Below are positions 1-62,719 of a stretch of DNA of 64,000 nt, in pieces (positions within the stretch are counted from its first letter, which is position 1; each line of letters begins with the position of its first letter). Source of the stretch: Escherichia coli. GTDB lineage: Bacteria; Pseudomonadota; Gammaproteobacteria; Enterobacterales; Enterobacteriaceae. Under the pieces are notes generated by a model. The model searched no databases. It was not told the origin of the DNA and saw only the letters and a program-made list of their open reading frames with translations. The stretch lies in the NCBI RefSeq assembly GCF_017348835.2, contig NZ_CP071375.1; one strand, given 5' to 3'. The position numbers and the translations under genes are program-made.

Positions 1-1717
1 CCTGGCGGGTGGTGCGGAAAATACGCTGGCTTCTGTGCTCGACTGCACCGTCACGCCGATGGGCAGCCGTATGCTGAAACGCTGGCTGCATATGCCAGTG
101 CGCGATACCCGCGTGTTGCTTGAGCGCCAGCAAACTATTGGCGCATTGCAGGATTTCACCGCCGGGCTACAGCCGGTACTGCGTCAGGTCGGCGACCTGG
201 AACGTATTCTGGCACGTCTGGCTTTACGAACTGCTCGCCCACGCGATCTGGCCCGTATGCGCCACGCTTTCCAGCAACTGCCGGAGCTGCGTGCGCAGTT
301 AGAAACTGTCGCTAGTGCACCGGTACAGGCGCTACGTAAGAAGATGGGCGAGTTTGCCGAGCTGCGCGATCTGCTGGAGCGAGCAATCATCGACACACCG
401 CCGGTGCTGGTACGCGACGGTGGTGTTATCGCATCGGGCTATAACGAAGAGCTGGATGAGTGGCGCGCGCTGGCTGACGGCGCGACCGATTATCTGGAGC
501 GTCTGGAAGTCCGCGAGCGTGAACGTACCGGCCTGGACACGCTAAAAGTTGGCTTTAATGCGGTGCACGGCTACTACATTCAAATCAGCCGTGGGCAAAG
601 CCATCTGGCACCTATCAACTATATGCGTCGCCAGACGCTGAAAAACGCCGAGCGCTACATCATTCCAGAGCTAAAAGAGTACGAAGATAAAGTCCTCACT
701 TCAAAAGGCAAAGCACTGGCTCTGGAAAAACAGCTTTATGAAGAGCTGTTCGACCTGCTGTTGCCGCATCTGGAAGCGTTGCAACAGAGCGCGAGCGCGC
801 TGGCGGAACTCGACGTGCTGGTGAACCTGGCGGAACGGGCCTATACCCTGAACTACACCTGCCCGACCTTCATTGATAAACCGGGCATTCGCATTACCGA
901 AGGCCGCCATCCGGTGGTTGAACAGGTGCTGAACGAGCCATTTATCGCCAACCCGCTGAATCTGTCACCGCAGCGCCGGATGTTGATTATTACCGGTCCG
1001 AACATGGGCGGTAAAAGTACCTATATGCGCCAGACCGCACTGATTGCGCTGATGGCCTATATCGGCAGCTACGTACCGGCGCAAAAAGTCGAGATTGGCC
1101 CGATTGACCGTATCTTTACCCGCGTAGGGGCAGCGGATGATCTGGCTTCCGGGCGTTCAACCTTTATGGTGGAGATGACCGAAACCGCTAATATTCTGCA
1201 TAACGCCACCGAGTACAGTCTGGTGCTGATGGATGAGATTGGGCGCGGAACGTCCACTTACGATGGTCTGTCGCTGGCGTGGGCGTGCGCGGAAAATCTG
1301 GCGAATAAGATTAAGGCGTTGACGCTGTTTGCCACCCACTATTTCGAGCTGACCCAGTTACCGGAGAAAATGGAAGGCGTCGCCAACGTGCATCTCGATG
1401 CACTGGAGCACGGCGACACCATTGCCTTTATGCATAGCGTGCAGGATGGCGCGGCGAGCAAAAGCTACGGCCTGGCGGTTGCAGCTCTGGCCGGCGTGCC
1501 AAAAGAGGTTATTAAGCGCGCACGGCAAAAACTGCGTGAGCTGGAAAGCATTTCGCCGAACGCCGCCGCTACGCAAGTGGATGGTACGCAAATGTCTTTG
1601 CTGGCAGTGCCAGAAGAAACCTCGCCTGCGGTCGAGGCACTGGAAAACCTCGATCCGGATTCACTCACCCCGCGTCAGGCGCTGGAGTGGATTTATCGCT
1701 TGAAGAGTCTGGTATAA
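1..1717 (+). CDS. mutS: DNA mismatch repair protein MutS, C-terminal ~570 aa (5' end lies outside the window)
   Basis: Reading frame is open from position 2 ([29 protein letters not shown]...). Walker A motif GPNMGGKST and the MutS C-terminal dimerisation region are present; stop at 1715-1717. Confidence 0.95.
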
Positions 1718-1822
1718 TTATAATTCCCGGTAGAAAAATACTATCGGGAATATTATCTACAGCTGACGAATCAAATAAAAATACCCTGTATAATAGGAAA
1801 GCTTATTTTACAGGGTAAAACC

Positions 1823-2479
1823 ATGCCATCTACACGCTATCAAAAAATCAATGCCCATCACTATCGCCATATATGGGTCGTTGGTGATATTCATGGTGAA
1901 TATCAGTTATTACAATCCCGCTTACATCAACTCTCTTTTTTCCCCGAAACCGACTTACTTATTTCTGTCGGCGATAATATTGATCGTGGGCCGGAGAGTC
2001 TTAACGTCCTGCGCCTGCTAAACCAGCCCTGGTTTATCTCCGTTAAAGGCAACCACGAAGCAATGGCGCTGGATGCGTTCGCGACCGGCGATGGCAATAT
2101 GTGGCTTGCCAGCGGTGGTGACTGGTTTTTCGATTTAAATGATTCAGAGCAAAAAGAAGCTACAGATCTGTTGCTGAAATTCCATCACCTTCCACATATT
2201 ATTGAAATCACTAACGACAACATAAAATATGTCATCGCACATGCAGATTATCCGGGGAGTGAATATCTCTTTGGTAAAGAAATAGCGGAGAGCGAATTAC
2301 TCTGGCCTGTTGATCGTGTGCAGAAATCGCTTAATGGCGAGTTACAACAAATAAACGGCGCTGATTATTTTATATTTGGACATATGATGTTTGATAACAT
2401 TCAGACGTTCGCTAACCAGATTTATATTGATACCGGATCGCCGAAAAGCGGGCGGCTGTCATTTTATAAAATAAAGTAA
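1823..2479 (+). CDS. pphB: Serine/threonine protein phosphatase 2 (calcineurin-like metallophosphoesterase)
   Basis: 218 aa with the metallophosphatase motifs GDIHG, GDNIDRG and GNHE; lies immediately downstream of mutS as in E. coli. Confidence 0.85.
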   Translation: MPSTRYQKINAHHYRHIWVVGDIHGEYQLLQSRLHQLSFFPETDLLISVGDNIDRGPESLNVLRLLNQPWFISVKGNHEAMALDAFATGDGNMWLASGGDWFFDLNDSEQKEATDLLLKFHHLPHIIEITNDNIKYVIAHADYPGSEYLFGKEIAESELLWPVDRVQKSLNGELQQINGADYFIFGHMMFDNIQTFANQIYIDTGSPKSGRLSFYKIK

Positions 2480-2519
2480 TGAGGCCGGGTAAAGCAAAGC
2501 CACTACCCGGCACTTTTTA

Positions 2520-2756
2520 TTAGCGCTTACCTTCCGCCAGCAGCGGCGGGATGCTCGGCACCATTGGCGCGTCATCAATATCTTTCTGCGTCATGCGGAA
2601 CGCTTCGGGATAATGTTCGCGGCTGGTACGGCGCAGCGGTTCGGTATCGCGCCAGGTATAAAGGCAATGCTGGCACTGATATACCGTCCAGACATCTTTC
2701 ACCGGCGATTTCGCCATCACTTCAATCTGTTCATCGGCACAACGTGGACAAATCAT
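2520..2756 (-). CDS. Small subunit of a UbiD-type phenolic acid decarboxylase (BsdD/VdcD-like), Cys4 zinc-ribbon-like
   Basis: 78 aa with CPRC...CQHC; last gene of a three-gene minus-strand operon after the UbiX-like and UbiD-like genes (B-C-D order). Confidence 0.65.
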   Translation of the reverse strand: MICPRCADEQIEVMAKSPVKDVWTVYQCQHCLYTWRDTEPLRRTSREHYPEAFRMTQKDIDDAPMVPSIPPLLAEGKR

Positions 2757-2766
2757 CTTGTTCTCC

Positions 2767-4194
2767 TTATTTACGTGCGGCCAGCATAGCGGTCAGTTTT
2801 TCAGCCCAGGCTTTGGTTTCCGGCAAATCCACCACCGGCTGGCTGTAGTGACCACGGTTGTCCGGGGCGACAGGCGTGGTGGCGTCGATAATCAGCTTGT
2901 CGGTGATCCCCGCCTGGCTTGAGCCAGGGTCGAGTTCCAGCACGGACATATTCGGCAACTGCACCAAATCCCCTGCCGGATTTACTTTCGAGGAGAGCGC
3001 CCACATCACCTGCGGCAGGTTGAACGGGTCAACGTCTTCATCGACCATAATCACCATCTTTACGTAGCCCAGACCGTGCGGCGTGGTCATCGCACGCAGG
3101 CCCACCGCGCGGGCAAAGCCGCCGTAGCGTTTTTTGGTGGAGATAATCGCCAGCAGGCCGTGGGTGTACATGGCGTTTACCGCCTGCACTTCCGGGAACT
3201 CGGCTTTCAGTTGTTGATACAGCGGCACGCAGGTGGCAGGCCCCATCAGGTAGTCGATTTCGGTCCACGGCATGCCGAGGTACAGCGATTCGAAAATCGG
3301 CCTGGTGCGGTAAGAGACTTTATCGATGCGCACCACGGTCATGTTACGCCCGCCGGAGTAGTGTCCGGTAAACTCACCGAACGGCCCTTCGATTTCGCGT
3401 TTACGGCTTTCGATGACCCCTTCGAGGATCACTTCTGAACCCCACGGCACATCAAAACCGGTCAGCGGGGCGGTGGCGATCGGGTACGGGCTTTCACGCA
3501 GCGCGCCTGCCATTTCATACTCAGACTGATCGTATTTCAGCGGCGTGGCCCCCATCAGCGTGATGATCGGATCGTTACCGAGCGTGATCGCAATCGGCAG
3601 ATCTTCACCGCGCTCTTCTGCTTTATGCAGATGCAGGGCGATATCGTGCATCGGCACCGGTTGCAGGCCGAGCTTACGCTTGCCCTTCACTTCCATGCGG
3701 TAGATGCCGACGTTCTGCTTGCCGAAGTTATCCGGGTCGAGCGGATCGCGGGAAACCACGCAGGCTTTGTCGAGATAGAAACCGCCATCGCCATCGTTTA
3801 AACGAAACAGCGGCAGGATATCGAACAGGTTAATCTCGTCGCTATCAACGGTGTTCTGCGCCCAGGCAGGATTGGCGCGGCGCTCCGGGGCAATCGGGAA
3901 GTTATCCCAGCGGCGGATAAACTCATCAATCTGCTTTTTGACCGGGGTGTTTGGTGGCAGGCCAAGGGAAATCGCGTGGTTCTGCCAGGAACCGATGGTA
4001 TTCATCGCCACGCGGGCATCGGTAAAGCCGCGAATATTATCAAACCACAGCGCGGGCGCGCCGTCGCCGATACGCCCGGTGGCGTTAGCTGCTGCTGCCA
4101 GATCCGGTTCCGCGTTCACCTCTTCGCTGATTTTCAGTAACTGGCCGTGGTCATCAAGCGCCTGTAAAAAGCTGCGTAAATCATCAAATGCCAT
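2767..4194 (-). CDS. UbiD-family (prFMN-dependent) decarboxylase, BsdC/VdcC-like
   Basis: 475 aa with overall UbiD-family character; its start overlaps the stop of the upstream UbiX-like gene at 4194. Confidence 0.85.
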   Translation of the reverse strand: MAFDDLRSFLQALDDHGQLLKISEEVNAEPDLAAAANATGRIGDGAPALWFDNIRGFTDARVAMNTIGSWQNHAISLGLPPNTPVKKQIDEFIRRWDNFPIAPERRANPAWAQNTVDSDEINLFDILPLFRLNDGDGGFYLDKACVVSRDPLDPDNFGKQNVGIYRMEVKGKRKLGLQPVPMHDIALHLHKAEERGEDLPIAITLGNDPIITLMGATPLKYDQSEYEMAGALRESPYPIATAPLTGFDVPWGSEVILEGVIESRKREIEGPFGEFTGHYSGGRNMTVVRIDKVSYRTRPIFESLYLGMPWTEIDYLMGPATCVPLYQQLKAEFPEVQAVNAMYTHGLLAIISTKKRYGGFARAVGLRAMTTPHGLGYVKMVIMVDEDVDPFNLPQVMWALSSKVNPAGDLVQLPNMSVLELDPGSSQAGITDKLIIDATTPVAPDNRGHYSQPVVDLPETKAWAEKLTAMLAARK

Positions 4195-4787
4195 TATTCA
4201 TTCTCCTGAGAAAAATTCCGGGCCTGCGGCAATCCTTGCCAGCGCCTGGCGTGGGGATGTTCGAGGCCAAATTGATCCAGCACGCGGGCTACCACATGGT
4301 GGACAATGTCATCTACCGTTTCGGGATGGTTATAAAAGGCAGGCATCGGCGGCACCATCGCCACGCCCATGCGTGAAAGTGCGAGCATATTTTCGAGATG
4401 GATGGTGCTAAGCGGCATTTCACGCGGCACCAGCACCAGTTTGCGGCCTTCTTTGAGCACGACGTCCGCCGCGCGCCCTACCAGGCCATCAGCGTAACCA
4501 GCGCGGATACCGGCGAGCGTTTTCATACTGCACGGAATAACGATCATGCCGTCGGTACGAAAAGAACCTGAGGAGATGGTCGCCGCCTGATCCGCCGGTT
4601 TATGGCTGAAGTCAGCGAGGGCAGCAACATCGCGGGCGCTGTAAGGCGTTTCCAGTTCAATGGTGGTTTTCGCCCACTTCGACATCACCAGATGAGTCTC
4701 GACATTCGGCATCTCCCGCAGCGCTTGCAGTAATGCCACACCAAGAGGCGCACCGGTAGCCCCTGTCATCCCGACGATCAGTTTCAT
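4194..4787 (-). CDS. UbiX-family flavin prenyltransferase (Pad1/BsdB/VdcB-like)
   Basis: 197 aa, MKLIVGMTGATGA N-terminus and SGSF...IPCSMKTLAGI motifs typical of UbiX/Pad1. Confidence 0.85.
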   Translation of the reverse strand: MKLIVGMTGATGAPLGVALLQALREMPNVETHLVMSKWAKTTIELETPYSARDVAALADFSHKPADQAATISSGSFRTDGMIVIPCSMKTLAGIRAGYADGLVGRAADVVLKEGRKLVLVPREMPLSTIHLENMLALSRMGVAMVPPMPAFYNHPETVDDIVHHVVARVLDQFGLEHPHARRWQGLPQARNFSQENE

Positions 4788-4933
4788 TGCTTACTCTCTT
4801 AATTGTTCGTATACGAACGTTATTGTTAACATACTCCTTCATTTCCACAGCGGCAAGGATTGAAAAGTAACAACATCTTCTTCGTCACTAAAAAACCGCT
4901 ATGATAGCGACAGAGAATTAGCCCGGAGTTTAC

Positions 4934-5341
4934 ATGGCGTTACGAAAAAAAGCGTTCCATCAGTTACGACAGCTTTTTCAGCAGCACACGGCTCGCTGGC
5001 AGCACGAGTTACCTGACCTGACCAAACCACAGTATGCGGTGATGCGCGCCATTGCTGATAAGCCTGGTATCGAACAGGTGGCACTGATAGAAGCAGCAGT
5101 CAGCACCAAAGCAACGTTGGCAGAAATGTTGGCAAGAATGGAGAATCGTGGCTTAGTCAGACGTGAACATGATGTCGCTGACAAGCGGCGTCGCTTTGTC
5201 TGGCTGACTGCCGAAGGAGAAAAGATACTTGCTGCGGCGATACCGATTGGTGACAGCGTGGATGAGGAATTTTTGGGGCGTTTGAGTGTAGAAGAGCAGG
5301 AGCTGTTTATGCAGTTGGTGCGCAAGATGATGAGCACATAG
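4934..5341 (+). CDS. MarR/SlyA-family transcriptional regulator
   Basis: 135 aa with a winged-helix MarR-like core; divergent from the decarboxylase operon, suggesting it regulates it. Confidence 0.8.
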   Translation: MALRKKAFHQLRQLFQQHTARWQHELPDLTKPQYAVMRAIADKPGIEQVALIEAAVSTKATLAEMLARMENRGLVRREHDVADKRRRFVWLTAEGEKILAAAIPIGDSVDEEFLGRLSVEEQELFMQLVRKMMST

Positions 5342-5460
5342 AATGCTGATTGCCGGGTAGGACGCTGACGTGTCTTATCCAGGCGACAAAAACACAAGCT
5401 TCCCAAACAAAAGAAAAAGGCCAGCCTCGCTTGAGACTGGCCTTTCTGACAGATGCTTAC

Positions 5461-6453
5461 TTATTCGCGGAACAGCGCTTCGATATTCAGCCCCTGCGTT
5501 TGCAGGATTTCGCGCAAACGGCGCAGGCCTTCAACCTGAATCTGGCGAACACGTTCACGGGTGAGGCCAATTTCACGACCTACATCTTCCAGTGTTGCCG
5601 CTTCGTACCCCAGCAAACCGAATCGACGTGCCAGCACTTCACGCTGTTTGGCGTTCAGCTCGAACAGCCATTTGACGATGCTCTGCTTCATATCGTCATC
5701 TTGCGTGGTATCTTCCGGACCGTTCTCTTTTTCATCGGCCAGGATGTCCAGCAACGCTTTTTCGGAATCACCACCCAGCGGGGTGTCTACCGAGGTAATG
5801 CGCTCGTTAAGACGAAGCATACGGCTGACGTCATCAACTGGCTTATCCAGTTGCTCTGCGATCTCTTCCGCACTTGGTTCATGGTCCAGTTTATGGGACA
5901 ACTCGCGTGCGGTTCGCAGGTAAACGTTCAGCTCCTTTACGATGTGAATCGGCAAACGAATAGTACGGGTTTGGTTCATAATCGCCCGTTCAATCGTCTG
6001 GCGAATCCACCAGGTTGCATATGTTGAGAAGCGGAAACCACGTTCCGGGTCAAACTTCTCTACCGCGCGGATCAGCCCCAGGTTGCCCTCTTCGATAAGG
6101 TCCAGCAACGCCAGACCACGATTGCCATAACGGCGGGCAATTTTTACCACCAGACGCAAGTTACTCTCGATCATCCGGCGGCGAGAGGCGACATCTCCAC
6201 GCAGTGCGCGACGCGCAAAATAAACTTCTTCTTCGGCCGTTAACAGTGGTGAATAACCAATCTCACCAAGGTAAAGCTGAGTCGCGTCCAACACACGTTG
6301 TGTGGCTCCCTGCGATAACAGTTCCTCTTCGGCCAAATCGTTATCACTGGGTTCCTCTTCTACTAAGGCCTTTTCGTCAAAAACCTCAACTCCGTTCTCA
6401 TCAAATTCCGCATCTTCATTTAAATCATGAACTTTCAGCGTATTCTGACTCAT
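5461..6453 (-). CDS. rpoS: RNA polymerase sigma factor RpoS (sigma-S/sigma-38)
   Basis: 330 aa from [21 protein letters not shown]; the ORF-track start is 12 codons upstream of the conserved start. Codon 33 is Glu. Confidence 0.97.
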
Positions 6454-6515: not shown

Positions 6516-7655
6516 TTATCGCTGCGGCAAATAACGCAGCGGGTTTACGGATTTCCCCTTGTAACGAATTTCAAAATGCAAGCGTGTTGAACTGGTTCCG
6601 GTGCTACCCATGGTTGCTATTTTTTGCCCCGCCTTCACTTCTTGTTGTTCCCGGACCAGCATTGTGTCGTTATGGGCGTAGGCACTCAGGTAATCATCAT
6701 TATGTTTGATGATAATCAGATTACCGTAGCCGCGCAGCGCGTTACCGGCATAAACAACGCGGCCATCTGCGGTCGCGATAATTGCCTGTCCTTTGCTGCC
6801 TGCGATATCAATCCCCTTGTTGCCCCCCTCAGAAGCGCCAAAGGTTTCGATCACTTTGCCCTCAGTCGGCCAGCGCCAGGTGGAGATAGGCGTACTGGTT
6901 GATGTACTGCTGACAGTCGGCTCGGTTGTGCTTGCTGTTGGTACCGTTACAGGCGCTGTGACCGTGGTCGCAGTTGGCTTGTTGTTCGGCAACATTTTGT
7001 TAGCACTCTGTTCACCCGAAGACTCAGAATACGTAATTGTCGGTTGCGACGCAACAGCAACGGTGGAATTTTGTGCAGGCTTGATCACAACTCCTTGCTC
7101 TGCTGCGTCGGCCTGGGTAATGGCATTTCCGCCAGTGATTGGCGTACCGGAAGCATTACCCACCTGCAAGGTCTGACCAACGTTCAGCGCGTATGGTGCC
7201 TGAATATTGTTGCGCTGAGCAAGGTCACGGAAATCGTTGCCAGTAATCCAGGCGATATAGAAAAGTGTGTCGCCTTTTTTCACGGTATAGGTACTGCCGC
7301 TATAACTGCCTTTCGGAATGTTCCCATACTGACGGTTGTAGACGATACGTCCGTTTTCCATCTGTACCGGCTGCTGAGCTACTGGCTGCACTGGCTGGAT
7401 TTGCGGTTGTTGAGTAGCCTGAATTTGTGGCTGCTGTACCGGCTGAATTTGCGGTTGCTGGGTTGTAGACGTCGTTCCCATTTTCGGCGGTGGCGTAATC
7501 AACATACCAGAATTGGTATTTGCTGGCGCATTGCCATTAACGGAGCTGACCGGTGCCGGTGGATTTGAAGTGTCAGAACAGCCTGCCAGCCATAGCGAAA
7601 CCAGTGACAAAGCCGCAATGCGGCGAACGGTGAATTTTGGGCTTCCCGCGCTCAT
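6516..7655 (-). CDS. nlpD: Murein hydrolase activator lipoprotein NlpD (LysM + M23 peptidase domains)
   Basis: Lipobox LAGC near the N-terminus, Q/P-rich repeat linker, LysM and LytM domains; directly upstream of rpoS. Confidence 0.95.
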
Positions 7656-7794: not shown

Positions 7795-9156
<1,362 letters not shown>

Positions 9157-16910: not shown

Positions 16911-17237
<327 letters not shown>

Positions 17238-17241
<4 letters not shown>

Positions 17242-18806
17242 TCAGCAGCCTCCTGCTTTTTCTCCCTGGCGGCTTTAGCACTTTGCTTCTCCGCCGATGT
17301 TGTAAAATATTTCTTGCGCGCGGTCATGACGCGTTCCAAATCAACGGGCTCATAAGGATTGGTGAATACACGCTCGTCAAAATCCTGACGTGCGAATAAC
17401 CAAATTTCCTTTTGCCATTTGCCGAGTAATTCATCCGCATCCTGACCTTCTTCAATTTGGCGCACTAACCTCAGGAAGCGATGCTGAGTTTTGTTCCAGA
17501 AGTCGATATCCACAAAACTGAAATCACCCCTTGCACCTTTTGGATCGGAGAACCATGCTTCTTTCAATGCACTCCGTAACAGACTCAGAATCCGTGAAGC
17601 CGTTTGCGCAGCCAGCCGCAGCTTCGGTATCTGGCCTTCTTTTTTATTGAGCAATAGAGGGAAATGGTGTTCGTACCAACAGCGAACCTTCATATCTTCG
17701 AAATCATAACCAAATCCCCACAAGCCTATTTTTGTCTGCTTTAGATTGCTGGCATTGAAAAGCTTCACTACCTGTGCGGGGAGTTCAGTATTGTTTTTTG
17801 ATTTACCTTCCTCTATGAGGCCTAACCAGTCGCGCCAGATTAAACCACCTGGTTGTGGTTTAACTGAGTAAAACTCTCCTCCCTCTTTAAGCGGCATACG
17901 GTAAGGTGTTAGAGGATGCCTCCACATGACGTATTGCACCCCATTGTTTTTAAGTGCCATCAAGCTCAATAGAGCGCCGCTCTGACTACCGCAAATATCG
18001 CAGTTGCCAATTGAGGTTGTCTTAAAATCAATACGAATACGCCGAGGCATTCCCCAGTAGGCCTGAAGTTTATTGACTTGTTCATCGGTTATCACAGCAC
18101 CATCCAGTTCACTGGTACGCGTCGGTGCAAGCCAGGGAAAGACCAGGTCATCAAAGGTTTTTGGTAAAGGTAAATCGGCTTCATCCTGTGGCATTACGTT
18201 AAGCCACAGCTTGCGCCACAAAGGGGGTTGTGGATTGCCCTGATACTCCAGCAATTCTATAAGTGTGGTCAGCGGCCCCCCGCCACGTAACCCCGGATAG
18301 TAACCGCGTCCACCTTTGGGAGCATTCAGCTGGATTGAAAAAAGTGCTAAAGGCACACAATGCAGGCATATATGCTGAATTGTATCTCGCTTAATAAAAT
18401 GGTCTTTATTTCGTTCTTTTGTTTGTTTTCCTGGTATGTCAGGAAGAAGCGAAGCAATAGAACTAACCTTAACTCTTAATTCTTCGAAATCCTGCATAAA
18501 TGAAGGTGAATCTGGCCCGAACTGGAAAGCATGTTCTAATAACAGCAATGCTTCCCGTAGCTTTTCGGCTTCCAGTCCGTCTTCCCAGATATCATCCCAA
18601 CGACGATGATCTTTTGGCGCGAAGCTGGTTTGTAGTAACCCCAGCAAAAACTGCCAGGCCGCCCCCTGGAGATCTGCCCGCGGCGCAGCGATATCGACAA
18701 CATTTTCATCCGCCAGATCGACTGGCGCCAGTTTGCCTGTCGTTCCGTCTTTAAAACGAACGGGCAACCACGGGGTTGTCAGAAGTGAAAACGAGTTCAT
18801 ACGCAT
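17238..18806 (-). CDS. cse1: Type I-E Cascade large subunit Cse1 (CasA), apparently intact
   Basis: About 520 aa from MRMNSFSLLTTPWLPVR; GLRGGGPLTTL motif; directly downstream of cas3. The ORF-track start at 18860 is an upstream extension. Confidence 0.85.
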
Positions 18807-18889
18807 CCTCTCGTAAAAAAGACCATCCAGGTCGGTTATCCATCCTTTTCGGTGTATCAACTATTCAGAGAGTCTCTGTCGCAGGCATC

Positions 18890-21484
18890 TCAATCAACCT
18901 TGCCAATCAATCCCTCCCTGGCCGAATACCCGCAACTTTCGTCATCAGTGACTAAAATCACGTTTGCCATCTCCGGATCTTGCCGTTGTTCAACACACCA
19001 CTGCCTGAACGCTTCCCCTTCCAGTAAAGAAAATTCATCCCGATGTTTTTTCCACCAGCTTCGACGCACTCTGGCAACGCTCATTTCCCATGCGTGAGCA
19101 CCGCTGGCATAAGGCTTCACCACACCGTCAATACAGGTAGCCAGCCACAGGGAAACAGACTCTTCAGCCAGACGTGTCGACAGCTTTTCCGGGAGGTAAT
19201 CGTTGATATTGGCGGCATAGCCGGGCCTGAAGTTCAGCATAAACTTTTTAGCCATTGCGCGATCGCAGTAATATTTGCCCACTTGCTCCTGCTCGCTGCG
19301 GGCAAATCCTTCCGGCATTACCACGTCCTCACCGTAGACGGATTCAATAAGAAGCCGGGCTGCGTGTGGCATCTGAATAGCGCCTTGCTCACGCAATACT
19401 CGCTGCGTCAGCCAGATTCGCCCATGATCGGGGTAGACATATGCGCTGTTACGCATCGCACTGCCAAACCATTCGTCACCCGGAGAGTCGTCCCAGACGG
19501 GGGCCAGAATCAGCAATTCAGGAGGGGAACGCTCGTCTTTTCCATCACGCTTTAACTGACCATTAATATCGCGAATATGCCGTTGTAATCGCCCCGCTCG
19601 CTGGATCAGCAAATCAATGGGGGCCAGGTCGGAGATCATTTCGTCCAGGTCAATATCCACACTTTGCTCAATTACTTGTGTACAAACAATGACTTGAGAT
19701 GATCTTTTTAAACTACAATTTTTACCAAAGCGTGCCAGCGTTTCCGTTTCAATTCGCTGGCGATCGCTAAAAGCAAAGCGGCTATGAAAAAGTGAAAGGC
19801 TGGAAGCAGGAATGACGCCGCGGGCAAGTAACTGACGATAAACCTTAATAGCGTCATCGACAGAATTCCGGATCCAGGCGATGCATTTCCCCTGACTTAC
19901 CGCTGATTCGATACGCGCAATACATTCTTGTTCGCTATGAAGCCAACCCACGCTCACGCTACGCTCAACGTCTTTGCGCGTCGCTACCCGGTGCGAATGC
20001 ACATCGGATTTCGTGACATGCGTCAGCCAGGGGTAATCATCCTTTTCCAGGAACGGAGCTTCTTGCTGGCCCTCTGTGCCACGCGCAAAGGCGGCGACAA
20101 GTTTGTCGCGCTGCTGTTGAGATAACGTAGCAGAAAGCAAAATGACGCTGTTTCCGCCACGCACCTGTCGCTCAATCAACCCTTCAAGAATGTACGACAT
20201 GTAAGCGTCACAGGCGTGGATCTCATCAGCCAGCAGGATTTTGTTACTCAACCCCAGAAGCCGCAGATTATTATGTTTAAACGGCATCACTGCCATCATC
20301 GCCTGATCCAGCGTGCCGACGCCAATTTCAGCCAGTAAAGCCTTCTTGTTACTGTCGGCAAACCAGGCTGCACATCCTTGACTGAACGCTTGTTCATCCG
20401 GTTCTTCTGACCCGACTAAATCACCGGACCAGAGTGATTCATTAAAGCGTTCCATTAATGTACGGGCGCTGTGTGCCAGCACCAGGCTGGGGCGGGATTC
20501 TGGCGAAAAGAAAGCAAGCCAGGTTTTGACCAGCCGATCGTACATGGCATTGGCCGTTGCCATTGTTGGCAGGCCAAAAAACAAACCCTGTGCTTTCCTC
20601 GCAGCCATCAACCTGTGCGCCAGGATAAGCGCCGCTTCTGTTTTACCTGCGCCAGTCACGTCTTCCAGAATAAATAACTTTGGCCCTGGCTGGCTGATAT
20701 CCAGATCCAGCACCTTTTGCTGTAATGGTGTCGGGTGCTCAATAAAAGGAAACAGCGTATTAATTCCGGTGAAAGGTGCGGTTTCTGCTTTTGGAGGAAA
20801 GACGGTTAAGGCGTTTTGAGCCTGAACTAAAGTTTTCTGCCAGTAATCTTTAATATCCATTGGGTGTGCGACGCGTGGAAAAAATCGCGTTGACGAACCC
20901 GTCCAGTCTGCGAGTACGACTGTTGCAGAGATATACCAGGAAAGTTGTTTTAAAAGTTCAACGCCCTCGTCATCATCCCAGAATGTGGGAATCTCTATGA
21001 GCGGAAACAGTGCCTTGATTTCAAGGAGAAAATCTCGCGCGGCAGCTTTGTCTTCAGGCAGAAAATTATCCAGCTCATCAATACGGTCAGGTGGTCGACC
21101 ATGATGCCCGGTAGTTATGGACATCCACATCTCTATTACACGTGTAAGTTTACGAGAAGAGAGTGAAGATGAAGGAAGCAACTCCTCACATTCACTTAAA
21201 TAATAATTCCACAGCCAGTAACCCAGCGTTGAATGAGAGATCTTTTCGTAATTCTTTCTGGAACCTTCCGGAATCTTGAGTTCAGGGGCCAGGTAAAGTT
21301 GCTGAAAAGAGCGGGCAAATTTTCCAATATCGTGCCAGCACAACAACCAGGCGAAAAATTGAGCCGCCTGTTCCTTGTCAGAAATCCCTAATTGACGAAA
21401 ATAATCAGCCAGCCCGAAGCAATTTCTTTTAACCATTAAATAGCCCATCGCGGCCACATCCAGCGAATGCCAGCAAAGAAGGTG
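18890..21484 (-). pseudogene. cas3: cas3 (type I-E HD nuclease/helicase), codon 36 to stop; 5' end severed by IS629
   Basis: HD motif HDIGKF, Walker A TGAGKT, DExH box DEIHACD and helicase C-terminal region present. The frame is open upstream right up to the IS boundary at 21484 with no native start; the ORF-track start at 21457 is a GTG. Confidence 0.9.
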
Positions 21485-21538
21485 TGAACCGCCCCGGAAA
21501 TCCTGGAGACTAAACTCCCTGAGAAAGAGGTAAACAGG

Positions 21539-21865
21539 ATGACTAAAAATACTCGTTTTTCCCCCGAAGTCCGTCAGCGGGCGATTCGTATGGTTCTGGA
21601 AAGTCAGGATGAATATGACTCACAGTGGGCGGCAATTTGTTCCATTGCCCCAAAGATTGGCTGTACGCCGGAGACTCTGCGTGTCTGGGTTCGCCAGCAT
21701 GAGCGGGATACCGGGAGTGGTGATGGTGGACTCACCACCGCTGAACGTCAGCGTCTGAAAGAGCTGGAACGTGAAAATCGTGAACTGCGCCGCAGTAACG
21801 ATATCCTTCGCCAGGCTTCCGCTTATTTTGCGAAGGCGGAGTTCGACCGCCTCTGGAAAAAATAA
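21539..21865 (+). CDS. IS629-like OrfA (HTH transposase N-terminal protein)
   Basis: 108 aa, [22 protein letters not shown]..., HTH plus leucine zipper typical of IS3-family OrfA. Confidence 0.9.
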
Positions 21866-22752
21866 TGCCACTGCTGGATAAGCTGCGTGAGCAGTACGGG
21901 GTCGGACCGGTATGCAGCGAACTGCATATTGCCCCGTCAACGTATTACCATTGTCAGCAACAGCGACATCATCCGGATAAACGCAGTGCCCGTGCGCAGC
22001 ACGATGACTGGCTGAAGAAAGAGATACAGCGCGTATACGATGAAAATCACCAGGTATACGGTGTGCGTAAAGTCTGGCGTCAGTTGTTACGGGAAGGTAT
22101 CAGAGTGGCCAGATGCACTGTGGCACGTCTCATGGCAGTTATGGGACTTGCCGGTGTTCTCCGGGGTAAAAAGGTCCGCACTACCGTCAGCCGGAAAGCC
22201 GTTGCCGCATGCGACCGCGTAAACCGTCAGTTCGTGGCAGAACGTCCAGACCAGTTGTGGGTGGCTGATTTTACCTGGGTAAGCACATGGCAGGGCTTCG
22301 TTTATGTGGCGTTCATCATTGATGTGTTCGCCGGATACATCGTGGGATGGCAGGTCTCATCATCCATGGAAACAACATTCGTGCTGGATGCACTGGAGCA
22401 GGCGTTGTGGGCCCGTCGGCCGTCCGGCACAATCCATCACAGTGATAAAGGTTCTCAGTATGTATCGCTGGCCTACACGCAGCGGCTTAAGGAAGCCGGA
22501 TTACTGGCATCAACAGGGAGTACTGGCGACTCGTATGACAACGCGATGGCTGAGAGCATCAATGGTCTTTACAAAGCGGAGGTAATACACCGTAAGAGCT
22601 GGAAAAACCGGACAGAAGTGGAACTGGCCACACTAACGTGGGTGGACTGGTATAACAATCGACGATTGCTGGAAAGGCTGGGCCATATTCCTCCGGCAGA
22701 AGCAGAAAAAGCTTATTATGCTTCCATCGGAAATAATGATCTGGCAGCCTGA
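21865..22752 (+). CDS. IS629-like OrfB (DDE/rve integrase-core transposase)
   Basis: 295 aa rve domain; in the -1 frame relative to orfA, with an A6 run at the overlap. Confidence 0.9.
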   Translation: MPLLDKLREQYGVGPVCSELHIAPSTYYHCQQQRHHPDKRSARAQHDDWLKKEIQRVYDENHQVYGVRKVWRQLLREGIRVARCTVARLMAVMGLAGVLRGKKVRTTVSRKAVAACDRVNRQFVAERPDQLWVADFTWVSTWQGFVYVAFIIDVFAGYIVGWQVSSSMETTFVLDALEQALWARRPSGTIHHSDKGSQYVSLAYTQRLKEAGLLASTGSTGDSYDNAMAESINGLYKAEVIHRKSWKNRTEVELATLTWVDWYNNRRLLERLGHIPPAEAEKAYYASIGNNDLAA

Positions 22753-23094: not shown

Positions 23095-23247
23095 CTACTT
23101 CTTCGATTCGTAAGCGAGAACAGCCTTAAACTCCATACCACGTTCCCTGATACTCAACTCACACAACGAGTCGCCTACCATCAGCGTGAATCCCAGTACT
23201 GTACAACACAGTACGATGATTGCCACAAGGGCATATTTTGTCAGCAT
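23095..23247 (-). CDS. Hok/Gef-family type I toxin (50 aa; below the ORF-track length cutoff)
   Basis: Minus-strand [53 protein letters not shown]: one transmembrane helix followed by the Hok signature SLCE...AYE. Confidence 0.7.
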
Positions 23248-23308: not shown

Positions 23309-24739
23309 ATGCAAATGCAGCATCTGATGGTTGGCTATCCTAAGTACTACCAAACGGCCGATTATGCGTTGAGGCTTTCAGTGATGGCTGATATAGCAAC
23401 AATGAGAATGAAGGCTCTGCACTTCTGGGATAAACACGGTATTTCTGCAGCTTCTGAAGCCTTTGGCGTGTCCTGCCGCACGCTTTACTGGTGGCGTCAG
23501 TTACTGAACAAGGAAGGACCTGAGGGGCTAATCCCGCACAGTAAGGCACCTCTGGTGCGACGAAAAAAACACTGGCATCCCGATGTGCTGAAAGAGATTC
23601 GACGCCTCAGGACAGAGCTGCCGAACCTCGGTAAAGAGCAGATTTTTGTTCGCCTGAAGCCCTGGTGCGAACAGCGCTATCTGGCCTGTCCGAGTGTTTC
23701 CACCATCGGCAGAATGATCGCTGCCGCACATGATAAAATGCGGATGATACCTGTGCGTCTGGGATCGCGGGGGAAGGCACTGCTTGTCAAAAAGCGGTCT
23801 GCCAAACCCCGCAGGCCAAAGCACTACCGCCCGGTAAAGACAGGTGAGCTCATTGGGATGGACGCCATTGAGCTCAGAATGGGCGAACTGCGTCGCTATG
23901 TCATCACCATGATCGACGAATGCAGCAATTACGCGCTGGCTGTGCCGTCACTCAACAGTGATATCGTCAATCACTTCTTCAGCCGCGCAGCCCGGTTGTT
24001 CCCGGTCGGTATCAGCCAGATAATCACAGATAACGGAAAAGAGTTCCTGGGAAACTTCGACAAAACGCTGCAGGAAGCCGCTATCAAACACCTCTGGACC
24101 TATCCCTACACGCCAAAAATGAACGCTATCTGTGAACGTTTTAACCGGACGTTAAGAGAGCAGTTTATTGAATTTAATGAGATTTTACTCTTTGAAGATC
24201 TGGCGCTATTTAACCAGAAGCTGGCGGAATATCTGGTGCTGTATAACAGCAAAAGACCCCACAAGGCGCTCGCACTAATGACGCCCGTGGAATATATTTT
24301 AAAAGAGAATAAAAATTGCAATATGTGGTGGACCCATACAATGTCTTGCCTCCCTGCAAAGAAGAGACTAACATTCGAATTGCTTAGGTTCGAACGCTGG
24401 CCTCAGGTTGATAGAAATATCGCCTGGGGCTTTTGTCCATCTGGAACCTCGCGAATGCTTAACGCCAGACAGCCTCAAGCACCCGACGCCATTCTATACC
24501 TGATAATTCTTCCAGCGGCGTTCACGTTTAAAATCAGGAATGCTGCTCGCAAAATAAAAACGCCCCCATCATTTCTGACAGAGGCGTTTAATTTATCCGG
24601 CAATATTTACCCTTCGTGTAACCCACATTCCCTTTTTAAGCCAAAGAAACGCGTTTCTTCTTCCGCCATGCCAGGTTCCCATTTACGGGTTGTATGGGTA
24701 TCACCGACCGATAAATATCCTTCGTCCCATAATGGGTGA
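23309..24739 (+). mobile_element. rve-domain (DDE integrase-core) transposase ORF, IS481-like; probably a 3'-truncated IS remnant
   Basis: HTH near the N-terminus (FGVSCRTLYWWRQ), catalytic core with GMDAIE...TDNGKEF...CERFNRT, ending about YNSKRPHKALALMTPVEY near 24300. The ORF then runs ~140 low-complexity codons without a stop and overlaps the cysH 3' end. No terminal inverted repeats recognised. Confidence 0.5.
24553..24590 (-). terminator. Putative intrinsic terminator downstream of cysH
   Basis: Minus-strand hairpin AAACGCC...GGCGTTT followed by TTTTATTTT about 20 nt after the cysH stop; the loop is long, so the hairpin is weak. Confidence 0.4.
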
Positions 24740-57637: not shown

Positions 57638-58448
57638 TTATTGCCCCGCGACAGGTTTCAGCTCGATACGCTTGATATCGCCCACCAGCACCAGGTAGCT
57701 CAGTACCGCGATTAAGGCATGAACACCAACATAAATCAGCGCCCCATTAAACGAGCCAGTCGTGCCAACGATATAACCAATTGCGATTGGCGTGACGATG
57801 CCAGAAATGTTACCGAACATGTTGAACAGGCCACCGGAAAGACCGCTGATCTCTTTTGGCGCGGTATCTGCCATTACTGCCCAACCCAGCGCCCCAATGC
57901 CCTTACCGAAGAAGGCCAGCGCCATAAAGCCGATGATCATCCACTCAACGTTGACGTAGTTGCAGAACACCATCACCATCGACAGCAACATGCCCATTAC
58001 GATCGGTGTTTTACGCGCAATGTTCAGCGATCCCGTGCGGCGCATCAGCCAGTCGGAAATAATCCCACCCAGCACACCACCGATAAAACCACAAACCGCC
58101 GGAACGGAAGCCACAAAGCCCGCTTTCAGAATCGACATCCCACGCGCCTGCACCAGATAAACCGGAAACCAGGTAATGAAAAAGTAAGTCAGGGCGTTGA
58201 TACAGTACTGACCGATATAAACGCCGATCATCATCCGTGACCCGAGCAGCTGTTTGATCTGCCCCCACTTCACGCTGAACGGCACTTTAACTTTGGTGTT
58301 TTGCTGATCCATATTGATCAGCGCGCCACCCGCGGCGATGTACTCCAGCTCTTTCTGATTTACCCCCGGATGTTGATTTGGCTCGTGGATGACTTTCAAC
58401 CAGATAAAGCTGATGACAATCCCCAGACCGCCCATAAAGAAGAAGACG
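57638..58448 (-). pseudogene. gudP: gudP 3' portion (C-terminal ~270 codons of the glucarate/galactarate MFS transporter), severed by IS629
   Basis: Frame reads ...(H)VFFFMGGLGIVISFIWLK... and is open upstream to the IS boundary at 58448. Confidence 0.9.
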
Positions 58449-58502
58449 TGAACCGCCCCGGAAATCCTGGAGACTAAACTCCCTGAGAAAGAGGTAAACA
58501 GG

Positions 58503-58829
58503 ATGACTAAAAATACTCGTTTTTCCCCCGAAGTCCGTCAGCGGGCGATTCGTATGGTTCTGGAAAGTCAGGATGAATATGACTCACAGTGGGCGGCAAT
58601 TTGTTCCATTGCCCCAAAGATTGGCTGTACGCCGGAGACTCTGCGTGTCTGGGTTCGCCAGCATGAGCGGGATACCGGGAGTGGTGATGGTGGACTCACC
58701 ACCGCTGAACGTCAGCGTCTGAAAGAGCTGGAACGTGAAAATCGTGAACTGCGCCGCAGTAACGATATCCTTCGCCAGGCTTCCGCTTATTTTGCGAAGG
58801 CGGAGTTCGACCGCCTCTGGAAAAAATAA
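58503..58829 (+). CDS. IS629-like OrfA
   Basis: Identical 108-aa product to copy 1 orfA. Confidence 0.9.
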
Positions 58830-59716
58830 TGCCACTGCTGGATAAGCTGCGTGAGCAGTACGGGGTCGGACCGGTATGCAGCGAACTGCATATTGCCCCG
58901 TCAACGTATTACCATTGTCAGCAACAGCGACATCATCCGGATAAACGCAGTGCCCGTGCGCAGCACGATGACTGGCTGAAGAAAGAGATACAGCGCGTAT
59001 ACGATGAAAATCACCAGGTATACGGTGTGCGTAAAGTCTGGCGTCAGTTGTTACGGGAAGGTATCAGAGTGGCCAGATGCACTGTGGCACGTCTCATGGC
59101 AGTTATGGGACTTGCCGGTGTTCTCCGGGGTAAAAAGGTCCGCACTACCGTCAGCCGGAAAGCCGTTGCCGCATGCGACCGCGTAAACCGTCAGTTCGTG
59201 GCAGAACGTCCAGACCAGTTGTGGGTGGCTGATTTTACCTGGGTAAGCACATGGCAGGGCTTCGTTTATGTGGCGTTCATCATTGATGTGTTCGCCGGAT
59301 ACATCGTGGGATGGCAGGTCTCATCATCCATGGAAACAACATTCGTGCTGGATGCACTGGAGCAGGCGTTGTGGGCCCGTCGGCCGTCCGGCACAATCCA
59401 TCACAGTGATAAAGGTTCTCAGTATGTATCGCTGGCCTACACGCAGCGGCTTAAGGAAGCCGGATTACTGGCATCAACAGGGAGTACTGGCGACTCGTAT
59501 GACAACGCGATGGCTGAGAGCATCAATGGTCTTTACAAAGCGGAGGTAATACACCGTAAGAGCTGGAAAAACCGTGCAGAAGTGGAACTGGCCACACTCA
59601 CGTGGGTGGACTGGTATAACAATCGACGATTGCTGGAAAGGCTGGGCCATATTCCTCCGGCAGAAGCAGAAAAAGCTTATTATGCTTCCATCGGAAATAA
59701 TGATCTGGCAGCCTGA
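58829..59716 (+). CDS. IS629-like OrfB (rve transposase)
   Basis: 295 aa; one substitution (T to A) relative to copy 1. Confidence 0.9.
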   Translation: MPLLDKLREQYGVGPVCSELHIAPSTYYHCQQQRHHPDKRSARAQHDDWLKKEIQRVYDENHQVYGVRKVWRQLLREGIRVARCTVARLMAVMGLAGVLRGKKVRTTVSRKAVAACDRVNRQFVAERPDQLWVADFTWVSTWQGFVYVAFIIDVFAGYIVGWQVSSSMETTFVLDALEQALWARRPSGTIHHSDKGSQYVSLAYTQRLKEAGLLASTGSTGDSYDNAMAESINGLYKAEVIHRKSWKNRAEVELATLTWVDWYNNRRLLERLGHIPPAEAEKAYYASIGNNDLAA

Positions 59717-59758
59717 GTTCACAGATAAAACACTCTCCAGGAAACCCGGGGCGGTTCA

Positions 59759-60304
59759 GACGTGTGACCAGCCCACTTCATGCGTCAGCCAGCCCATAAT
59801 CGGCGCGAAGATCACCGTTGCGAAGTATTGAGCGGAGTTAAAAATCGACACCGCCGTTCCCCTTTCCTGCGCCGGAAACCAGGCCGCAACAATGCGACTG
59901 TTGCCGGGGAAAGATGGCGCTTCAGCAAGCCCGACCAGGAAGCGCAGAGTAAACAGGGCAACGATAATGCCGAATCCACTAAAGATATCGACGAAGCCTT
60001 GCAGCAAGGTAAACATCGACCAGATAAAGATCGACCAGAAGTAGACGCGTTTTGAACCAAAACGATCCAGCAACCAACCACCAGGGATCTGCCCGATAAC
60101 ATAAGCCCATGAGAAGGCAGAGAACACATAGCCCATTCCCACGGGATCAAGGCCGATATCTTTGGCCATTTCCGAACCGGCAATAGAAAGCGTAGCGCGG
60201 TCGCCGTAGTTGAAGGATGTGACGATAAACAACATCACCACTATCCAGTAACGAGCATTCGTGCGTTTTTCCACACTGCTCGCAGCCTGACTTAAAGAAC
60301 TCAT
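59759..60304 (-). pseudogene. gudP: gudP 5' portion (N-terminal ~181 codons), terminated by a stop supplied by the IS end
   Basis: MSSLSQAASSVEKRTNARYWIVVM...THEVGWSHV then TGA formed by the IS629 terminal TCA (minus strand). Confidence 0.9.
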
Positions 60305-62317: not shown

Positions 62318-62360
62318 AAAGCAACCTCAATAAGAAAAACTGCCGCGAAGGATAGCAGGA

Positions 62361-62719
62361 ATAAAAAAAGGGAGCACTGTATTCACAGTGCTCCCGGTTC
62401 GTTTCGCAGCATTCCAGCTACTTTTGTTGCTCCCTGCTCATCCTTGACAACTTTTCCTCTGGCCTTGCGGCCAATCGTTCATCCTGAACTATTGCTTCCT
62501 GCTCACACCACCCCGATGTGATACTTCATCCTGAAGTGTCCCTGGCCTTCCTGACCCACCGAATCATCCTGACCGGTTCTCATTCTCCATCCTGGAGGTG
62601 TCCTTTAACGCGTCCTGCGTCATCCTCTTCGCTTCATCCAGAAGCCTTTCCCTGAAACACCATCCTGGTGTGTCCTTCAGAAGTGTCATCATCCTGATGT
62701 TCACTTCGTTGTCTGACTC
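62361..62719 (-). ncRNA. csrB: CsrB regulatory sRNA (CsrA-sequestering)
   Basis: Plus strand carries many ATCCTG/TCCTG units, i.e. CAGGA(U/A)G motifs on the minus strand. The 5' end matches GAGTCAGACAACGAAGTGAACATCAGGATG and the 3' end is a terminator hairpin. Confidence 0.85.
62362..62395 (-). terminator. csrB rho-independent terminator
   Basis: Perfect 10-bp stem GGGAGCACTG/CAGTGCTCCC, 6-nt loop, then U7 on the minus strand. Confidence 0.75.

Follow-up and report, generated by a model that had tools for sequence, protein, structure and literature searches.

The mutS-rpoS interval of an Escherichia coli chromosome carries an O157:H7-type hosA-vdcBCD module, very probably a 4-hydroxybenzoate-responsive phenolic-acid decarboxylase

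The interval between mutS and rpoS in Escherichia coli is a documented polymorphic region, for which an O157/EHEC-1 pattern I has been described (Ewers et al., 2014, PMC4209514), and the copy considered here raises the question of which genes occupy it, what they are likely to do and whether they came to this place recently. A sequence-only reading of the window, the whole stretch of 64,000 nucleotides that was analysed, had described a three-gene prFMN-type module (UbiX-like, UbiD-like and small Cys4 subunit) between pphB and rpoS, together with a divergent MarR/SlyA-like regulator. Scores above curated cut-offs and matches to PDB entries bear out both parts of this description: the hosA-vdcBCD module of E. 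coli is present, set between pphB and rpoS, and its four open reading frames have exactly the limits that this reading gave them. The gene content, protein families, catalytic and zinc motifs, presence and conservation of the operator, population distribution and rpoS allele were all observed directly. We conclude that the segment is very probably the hosA-vdcBCD module of an O157:H7-type, pattern I mutS-rpoS interval, encoding a 4-hydroxybenzoate-responsive phenolic-acid decarboxylase. The features of the interval, from left to right, are as follows.

1823..2479, plus strand: pphB, protein-serine/threonine phosphatase 2, the left conserved flank (NCBIfam NF007425, 473 bits, cut-off 332)
2484..2518, between the pphB and vdcD stop codons: junction hairpin GCCGGGTA..TACCCGGC, then TTTTT, read directly
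2520..2756, minus strand: vdcD, 78-aa Cys4 zinc-ribbon subunit (NCBIfam VdcD, 121 bits, cut-off 30)
2767..4194, minus strand: vdcC, 475-aa UbiD-family prFMN-dependent decarboxylase, predicted catalytic subunit (NCBIfam VdcC, 788 bits, cut-off 650)
4194..4787, minus strand: vdcB (pad1), 197-aa UbiX-family flavin prenyltransferase, the prFMN maker (NCBIfam VdcB, 312 bits, cut-off 290)
4805..4818: predicted HosA operator GTTCGTATACGAAC, a perfect 14-bp palindrome with halves GTTCGTA and TACGAAC, 17 nt from the vdcB ATG (4787-4785)
4934..5341, plus strand: hosA, 135-aa MarR-family repressor, by homology probably sensing 4-hydroxybenzoate (PDB 8AGA, E=3e-82, 130/135 identical)
5351..5387: degenerate REP-like palindromic element, read from the sequence, between hosA and the rpoS terminator, marking the right-hand limit of the variable segment
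5414..5447, minus strand: rpoS intrinsic terminator, a terminator-like site with 15 pairs
5461..6453, minus strand: rpoS, full length, 330 aa (NCBIfam RpoS, 605 bits)

The three decarboxylase genes are co-oriented on the minus strand in the order B-C-D (4787 to 4194, 4194 to 2767 and 2756 to 2520), with the vdcB stop codon overlapping the vdcC start by 1 nt and a gap of 10 nt between vdcC and vdcD, and each product exceeds the cut-off of its curated NCBI family, by scores that chance would not produce. The module also goes by the names pad1/yclC, kpdBCD and 'HAD'; EcdB and EcdD we take to be proteins of Enterobacter cloacae, and that name is therefore avoided for the E. coli module. VdcB is identical at 195 of 197 positions to Pad1 of E. 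coli O157:H7, crystallised as PDB 1SBZ; its score against the BagM/FevK model, 342 bits, is above its VdcB score, yet falls under the BagM/FevK cut-off of 420. The 475-aa protein belongs to the UbiD family, as had been proposed (TIGR00148, 418 bits), and residues 3-471 align with ShVdcC of Sedimentibacter hydroxybenzoicus (PDB 7AE4, 535 bits) at about 57% identity by a rough count from the alignment. The Glu-Arg-Glu catalytic loops are kept, NVGIYR at 161-166 and EGPFGE at 269-274, the latter aligning with E273/E278 of ShVdcC, with E274 opposite the catalytic E278. VdcD matches ShdD of the same structure (E=3e-11) and has cysteines at positions 3, 6, 28 and 31, in two CxxC knuckles, and a Pro-rich C-terminal tail, PMVPSIPPLL; in ShVdcD zinc is bound at the same four Cys positions (PMC8379154). 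By analogy, VdcD would be an allosteric activator bound to VdcC.

In VdcCD/ShdCD of S. hydroxybenzoicus, VdcBCD of Streptomyces sp. D7 and BsdBCD of Bacillus subtilis the B-C-D layout is the same, with a UbiD-type C subunit that has the Glu-Arg-Glu loops and a D subunit built as a Cys4 zinc ribbon with a Pro-rich tail. The regulator here is the MarR-type HosA, unlike that of B. subtilis, where the bsd regulator is the LysR-type BsdA. The Sedimentibacter and Bacillus enzymes catalyse the reversible, oxygen-sensitive decarboxylation of 4-hydroxybenzoate and vanillate and need both the C and the D subunit (PMC8379154), and from these enzymes, together with the ligand of HosA, we infer the substrate range of E. 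coli VdcBCD; a search of the open-access literature found no direct enzyme assay of the E. coli proteins.

Two other assignments of the enzyme have to be weighed. The UbiX and UbiD proteins of ubiquinone biosynthesis belong to the same two families and use the same prFMN chemistry, so that the module might be a spare UbiX/UbiD pair acting on membrane-bound 3-octaprenyl-4-hydroxybenzoate and not on free phenolic acids; the E. coli UbiD structures 2IDB and 5M1C match VdcC at 160 bits, and VdcB could plausibly supply UbiD with prFMN. We consider this extremely improbable, since VdcC reaches 172 bits against the UbiD equivalog NF008175, far under its cut-off of 788, yet 788 bits on the VdcC model. 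The module also has a VdcD partner, where UbiD has none, its substrate would be soluble, and its ligand-responsive repressor binds free 4-hydroxybenzoate according to published work. Alternatively, the enzyme could be a protocatechuate (AroY-type) or gallate (LpdBCD-type) decarboxylase and not one for 4-hydroxybenzoate and vanillate. AroY, which is not known to need a D subunit, is detectable among the structures matching VdcC (5O3M, 98 bits; 5NY5, 90 bits), but it is far less similar to it than ShVdcC is. AroY and LpdBCD are likewise UbiD-family aromatic acid decarboxylases needing a UbiX-type partner, and substrate ranges overlap within this enzyme class; the D subunit of the window, however, is a VdcD zinc ribbon, to which LpdD has no sequence similarity (PMC8379154). 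With 4-hydroxybenzoate published as the ligand of the cognate regulator, we regard a protocatechuate or gallate enzyme as highly improbable, and a VdcBCD-type decarboxylase of 4-hydroxybenzoate and vanillate is the assignment that we retain.

The regulator provides the link to 4-hydroxybenzoate. The hosA gene diverges from vdcB across a spacer of 146 bp, and its product differs from HosA of EPEC E2348/69, the protein of PDB 8AGA and one of several HosA structures solved, by five substitutions (K5, V82, I99, V119 and S134 in the window); residue 82 belongs to the wing and is variable among E. coli alleles (V/A/P/S). The HosA-HAD operon of uropathogenic UMN026 has the same regulator, an identical 14-bp operator and the divergent layout. 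Within the window GTTCGTATACGAAC has a single match, and the supplement of PMC6261655 gives an identical HosA binding-site probe, TTAATTGTTCGTATACGAACGTTATT. Five further E. coli loci and Salmonella have the operator in exact form, and Klebsiella and Chimaeribacter have variants of it that differ by 1-2 nt; its position is kept in Salmonella and in both of the latter genera. A consensus promoter scan returned 3 sites against 2.1 expected, among them a weak -10/-35 that overlaps the operator, unlike the arrangement in the literature, which places the HosA site downstream of the transcription start. HosA of UMN026 is reported to repress the operon, and 4-hydroxybenzoate to relieve this repression and release HosA from DNA (Roy & Ranjan, 2016, Biochemistry 55:1120); the published Kd for 4-hydroxybenzoate is 4.7 uM. 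HosA has already been exploited as a 4-hydroxybenzoate biosensor.

It has to be considered whether HosA is instead mainly a global or virulence regulator, concerned with motility in EPEC, whose adjacency to vdcBCD is incidental; EPEC hosA mutants are reported to have less flagellin. But the operator and the divergent pairing of marR with vdcB(C)D are kept in four genera, in Chimaeribacter on a plasmid; in NCBIfam HosA has its nearest relative in BagL/FevM, a MarR regulator that belongs to a different UbiX/UbiD cluster; and the published ligand of HosA is the substrate of the enzyme. An incidental adjacency is therefore very unlikely, and we treat HosA as the cognate regulator of the module.

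We suggest the following working model, in which the substrates, the requirement for VdcD, and repression and induction through HosA are carried over from near-identical or homologous published proteins. VdcB would prenylate reduced FMN to prFMN, and hexameric VdcC carrying oxidised prFMN would then remove CO2 in a reversible, oxygen-free reaction, converting 4-hydroxybenzoate to phenol and vanillate to guaiacol. The zinc ribbon of VdcD is expected to bind VdcC beside the Glu-Arg-Glu loops and to be required for activity. HosA dimers seated on the operator just upstream of vdcB would repress hosA as well as the operon, and would be freed from the DNA by 4-hydroxybenzoate. It is conceivable, though in our judgement quite improbable, that the main substrate of the module is 4-hydroxybenzoate made by the cell itself, which is the product of UbiC and a precursor of ubiquinone, and not dietary phenolic acids or parabens; no likelier is the accompanying idea that HosA, with its Kd of ~5 uM for this ligand, serves as a valve through which excess precursor is converted to phenol. 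Were this overflow role true, whether a strain has the module beside rpoS, lacks it or has a mosaic form of it would shape its ubiquinone precursor balance and its output of phenol in the gut.

The setting of the module is that of O157:H7. In the O157:H7 mutS-rpoS segment (pad1/yclC/slyA-like), the gene content, the gene order and the pphB-vdcD junction without ygbI-N are all the same as in the window, with 97.5% identity over 3.8 kb, and the layout in O157:H7 Z1814 equals that of the window. Pattern I is defined by the absence of ygbN (o454) and a short mutS-yclC distance (PMC4209514); in the window ygbI-N are missing and pphB directly adjoins the decarboxylase genes. The pphB gene itself has a strikingly low GC content of 42.5% and is annotated under the same name in strain PE164, which is 100% identical to the window. 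In the 40-bp spacer between pphB and vdcD, the hairpin at 2484..2518, a putative bidirectional terminator, is particular to the arrangement without ygbI-N; strains with ygbI-N have another hairpin, AAAAAGGTCCGATGGGCATCGGACCTTTT, ahead of vdcD, and their homology to the window begins at about 2508. At the other edge, homology to K-12 resumes exactly at the rpoS terminator, the K-12 match beginning at window position 5415, and the palindromic element just before it, which we take to be a REP, has a more canonical form in strain E47, CCGGATGCGACGCTATCGCGTCTTATCCAGACTAC. The variable segment, 2508-5414, measures ~2.9 kb, in agreement with the published size. Within it the window copy is a mosaic: 2508-3200 and 5008-5410 are O157-like, and 3300-4100 and the spacer between hosA and vdcB are nearer the E47/EPEC-type allele.

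The adjoining rpoS gene is full length with Glu at codon 33 (GAG, 6357-6355), as the sequence-only reading had it. RpoS is identical to that of K-12 MG1655 at 329 of 330 residues, the sole difference being E33 versus Q33, and its amino-acid sequence is shared at 100% identity with O157:H7 and E47; the loci of PE164, O157:H7 Z1814, E47 and MJ-T have the RpoS accession WP_000081550.1 in common. The rpoS gene is a wild-type, non-K-12 allele, and with it the window can be assigned to the O157/EHEC-1 'pattern I' type among E. coli chromosomes.

The distribution of the module accords with the earlier expectations that the interval is polymorphic, that the segment is not universally conserved and that K-12 carries a different gene set here. 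The module is present in 2,417 of the 5,426 complete E. coli genomes (44.5%), from hosts and sources of all kinds, and is absent from K-12, whose interval holds ygbI-ltnD-otnK-ygbL-ygbM-ygbN. The last expectation needs a refinement: strains E47 and MJ-T have the ygbI-N set and the module in tandem, and the two are not strict alternatives, many strains holding both in this way. The direct pphB-module junction seen in the window occurs in 801 of the 5,426 genomes, and ~1,600 genomes (2,417 minus 801) have the module without it. Identity of at least 99% over the whole module is found in 2/5,426 genomes, and the window is essentially identical to the pig isolate PE164.

These data bear on the suggestion, made in early papers and in a 2024 preprint, that pathogenic E. 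coli gained the segment recently by horizontal transfer, as an islet specific to pathogens. In favour of an islet one can cite the lack of the module in K-12, its GC content of 55-58% as against 51% for the whole window, the insertion wording of the literature, and VdcC proteins that are 96.6-97.5% identical between genera. The module is, however, found in E. coli from every kind of source, the adjoining mutS is itself already at 57% GC, and Salmonella and Klebsiella keep marR-vdcBCD at the identical mutS-rpoS interval. At synonymous sites, too, the module has diverged between genera much as the flanking core genes have. When E. coli is compared with Salmonella, third-codon identity comes to 0.45-0.76 in the module genes and 0.59-0.80 in the flanking core genes, and between genera it is 0.64-0.66 for vdcC and 0.53-0.60 for the core neighbours pcm and surE. 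Recent intergeneric transfer, a candidate prompted by the 97% protein identity of VdcC among E. coli, Salmonella and Klebsiella, is therefore unsupported and was discarded; purifying selection accounts for the high identity of the proteins. Carriage on plasmids in E. coli was likewise discarded, none of the 2,419 module places in E. coli being on a plasmid; the three E. coli matches in PLSDB are records of 4.8-4.9 Mb, in other words mislabelled chromosomes, and true (mega)plasmid copies occur in Pantoea, Rahnella and Chimaeribacter. We thus think a recent pathogen islet unlikely. An older foreign origin for vdcC may still apply, because its GC3 is 0.70 as against ~0.52 in neighbouring core genes. 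In the Enterobacteriaceae the module has long resided at this interval; many E. coli lineages, among them K-12, have lost or reshuffled it, and it recombines between lineages.

The polymorphism of the region, repression by HosA, induction by 4-hydroxybenzoate, the structures and PCR typing have all been published previously and are already known, and the checks that the sequence-only reading proposed are largely covered by this work. As a discovery, the locus carries little weight, being a textbook recombination-prone E. coli mosaic already used for PCR pathotyping. Its meaning lies elsewhere: the module is common, neither pathogen-specific nor E. coli-specific, and is kept at the same interval in other enterobacteria, which sets right the view, still met in some papers, that it was 'horizontally acquired by pathogens'.

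The ORF list agrees exactly with the sequence-only reading on where the genes of the mutS-rpoS interval lie.

Genes of the mutS-rpoS interval in the window (from the ORF list; vdcB, vdcC and vdcD also from NCBI curated models, hosA also from its match to PDB 8AGA)
35-1717, plus strand, mutS, 3' part
1823-2479, plus strand, pphB
2520-2756, minus strand, vdcD, 78 aa
2767-4194, minus strand, vdcC, 475 aa
4194-4787, minus strand, vdcB, 197 aa
4934-5341, plus strand, hosA, 135 aa
5461-6453, minus strand, rpoS; beyond it nlpD, pcm and surE

Because vdcB and vdcC overlap by one base and only 10 nt separate vdcC from vdcD, the three genes form one operon, from which hosA diverges across a 146-bp spacer. 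By sequence, the window belongs to an E. coli chromosome; 1700-5500 match the pig isolate PE164 at 100% identity, and 14221-64000 match the PE164 record at 99.99%.

By homology, the three operon proteins are subunits B, C and D of a non-oxidative hydroxyarylic acid decarboxylase. VdcB, VdcC and VdcD score 312, 788 and 121 bits against the corresponding NCBI curated models, all above the cut-offs (290, 650 and 30), in agreement with the UbiX/UbiD/small-subunit module proposed earlier, and the homology test of the proposed UbiD membership of the 475-aa VdcC returned TIGR00148 at 418 bits. We also considered VdcC as UbiD proper and rejected this (172 bits only, cut-off 788). VdcB is identical at 195 of 197 residues to a protein of O157:H7 crystallised as 'Pad1' (PDB 1SBZ). 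VdcC aligns from end to end with the Sedimentibacter VdcC/ShdC structure 7AE4 (535 bits), keeps the NVGxYR and EGPFGE loops, and has E274 as the aligned counterpart of the catalytic E278 of ShVdcC. VdcD matches ShdD, present in the same entry; its Cys 3, 6, 28 and 31 occupy the four zinc-ligand positions reported for ShVdcD, and both proteins have a Pro-rich tail. For the Sedimentibacter and Bacillus enzymes, both C and D are required and the substrate range has been shown (PMC8379154); from homology and the HosA ligand, we infer the same requirement and range for the E. coli copy.

The divergent MarR-family regulator is HosA by sequence, with 130 of 135 residues identical to 'Transcriptional regulator HosA' (PDB 8AGA), in keeping with the earlier call of a MarR regulator. 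Between hosA and vdcB, positions 4805-4818 form a perfect 14-bp palindrome, GTTCGTATACGAAC, separated from the vdcB ATG by 17 nt and found once in the 64-kb window. The sequence TTAATTGTTCGTATACGAACGTTATT, within a HosA binding-site probe (PMC6261655 supplement), is identical to window positions 4798-4823. According to Roy & Ranjan 2016, HosA of UPEC UMN026 represses its own gene and the decarboxylase operon, and is displaced by 4-hydroxybenzoate (4-HBA), which induces the operon; its Kd for 4-HBA is reported as 4.7 uM. The operator recurs without change in Salmonella and at five further E. coli loci, and at the equivalent place ahead of the first decarboxylase gene it reads GTTCGTACACGAAC in Klebsiella and GTTCGCACACGAAC on a Chimaeribacter plasmid. 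Thus, the regulator-operator pair is conserved across genera. HosA residue 82 (codon 5177-5179), in the HDxADKRRR wing motif, differs among the E. coli alleles compared (V in the window, A in O157:H7 and EPEC, P in E47, S in MJ-T), and hosA of the window and O157:H7 differ by six amino-acid changes and one third-position change, a replacement excess in very small numbers.

Most likely, the module as a whole works by a scheme in which VdcB would make prFMN and VdcC, with VdcD bound beside its catalytic loops, would decarboxylate 4-hydroxybenzoate to phenol and vanillate to guaiacol, in a reversible reaction that would not need oxygen. HosA would hold the operon off until substrate is present.

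The module occurs in 2,417 (44.5%) of 5,426 complete E. coli genomes, with at least 80% of it present in 2,380 of these, and all 2,419 copies are chromosomal; pphB directly adjoins the module, as in the window, in 801 genomes (14.8%). The comparison with reference genomes suggested by the sequence-only reading was run, and its polymorphic segment in a non-K-12 arrangement is borne out: K-12 MG1655 reads pphB-ygbI-ltnD-otnK-ygbL-ygbM-ygbN-rpoS and lacks the module, E47 and MJ-T have ygbI-N and then the module, and O157:H7 has the layout of the window. In the scheme of PMC4209514, the layout of the window is that of 'pattern I' (o454/ygbN-negative, O157:H7 and EHEC-1 group), K-12 has pattern II and EPEC pattern IV; a different insert occupies this region in group B2 (PMC4209514). 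At the K-12 junction, 8 bp lie where the module would be, between the ygbN and rpoS terminators. The window has a distinct hairpin (2484-2511) at its pphB-vdcD junction. It is homologous to module-bearing strains over 2.9 kb (about 2508-5414), the length reported for the O157:H7 segment. Some genomes show decay, with an IS3 inside vdcC in H44 and only a hosA remnant in H55.

The adjoining rpoS is intact, with 330 codons and GAG at codon 33 (6357-6355), confirming a full-length Glu33 allele. Residue 33, Glu versus Gln, is the sole difference from K-12 MG1655 RpoS, and the protein is identical to that of the O157:H7 and E47 loci; accession WP_000081550.1 is annotated in O157:H7, E47, PE164 and MJ-T.

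In Salmonella Senftenberg, marR-vdcBCD directly adjoins rpoS in the opposite orientation to that in E. coli (L006:7833-11712, that locus's own coordinates), with vdcD, not the MarR gene, adjoining the rpoS 3' end. This record, a 728-kb 'plasmid' by its label, contains the core chromosomal genes rpoS, nlpD, pcm, surE, ispDF and cysCN, and therefore looks like a mislabelled chromosome piece. In K. pneumoniae the module has the same orientation as in E. coli and lies between rpoS and mutS. A 251-kb Chimaeribacter arupi plasmid (L008:5327-7672, own coordinates) has marR-vdcC-vdcD without vdcB, and two operator-like palindromes in the spacer; its enzyme presumably obtains prFMN from a chromosomal UbiX.

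Identity between E. coli and Salmonella (protein; third-codon)
vdcC: 97.5%; 0.66
vdcB: 87%; 0.49
hosA: 79%; 0.45
pcm / surE, core neighbours: 94% / 92%; 0.60 / 0.59

These sequence identities are consistent with a long-resident module whose VdcC is under strong purifying selection. Recent intergeneric transfer of the module was considered and rejected, as the third-codon identities, set against those of pcm and surE, do not fit it. GC content (module 55-58%, with vdcC at 58%; mutS 57%; pphB 42.5%) is not decisive on the module's origin. In composition, pphB (1823-2479; GC3 0.43) is the gene that stands out from the rest of the interval, yet it is kept in nearly all E. coli, the flanks being matched in 5,416 of the 5,426 genomes.

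On sequence comparison, the window's module copy is a mosaic within E. coli. It differs from O157:H7 by 0-2 bases per 200 bp at 2508-3300 and 5008-5300; over 3300-4200 and 4700-5000 the differences rise to 8-22, and the copy is near the E47 type instead. Because the allele is mosaic, only two of the 5,426 genomes match it at 99% or more. In the right flank, the window's surE (8507-8906) differs by 15-28 bases per 200 bp from that of MJ-T and by 1-4 from those of O157:H7 and E47, a patch that looks like a short recombination import; the Gln/Pro-rich QQPQIQ repeat region of nlpD (7307-7606) is the most variable part of this flank in all three comparisons.

Elsewhere in the window, a type I-E CRISPR-Cas locus is degraded (about 16911-22752; coordinates carried over from the PE164 annotation, +/-1). 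It retains cas3 and casA, and a truncated casB runs straight into cas2e, so casB-cas1 has been deleted internally; the PE164-based annotation has no CRISPR array beside iap. Between queE and ygcE, the annotation has a small CRISPR array (about 40967-41301). An IS3-family element adjoins the cas3 start (ALIL pseudoknot 21820-21936), and a second, frameshifted copy of it, 99.6-99.8% identical (pseudoknot 58784-58900), breaks the glucarate/galactarate transporter gene gudP (about 57638-60303). Beside cysH, an integrase-core pseudogene of about 1 kb (about 23309-24337) lies between a hok/gef-family gene (about 23095-23247) and an Rfam sok antitoxin RNA match (24335-24484), which suggests a hok/sok locus split by an IS fragment. 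The annotation of the near-identical PE164 gives a frameshift in the MFS transporter gene yqcE (about 37620-38824), which lies near the queE-ygcE array, and a full-length CsrB sRNA lies at the window's far end (62360-62719, minus strand; Rfam RF00018, 383 bits).

The sequence-only reading was right in both observation and interpretation, and the tests it named had in large part been done before. Published work or curated databases already cover the variable region and how it is typed, the structures of Pad1 and HosA, the operator and ligand of HosA, and the mechanism of VdcCD. To these, the present analysis makes small additions: the module's frequencies in current complete genomes, a mosaic allele, conservation of the operator across genera, and evidence against recent intergeneric transfer.
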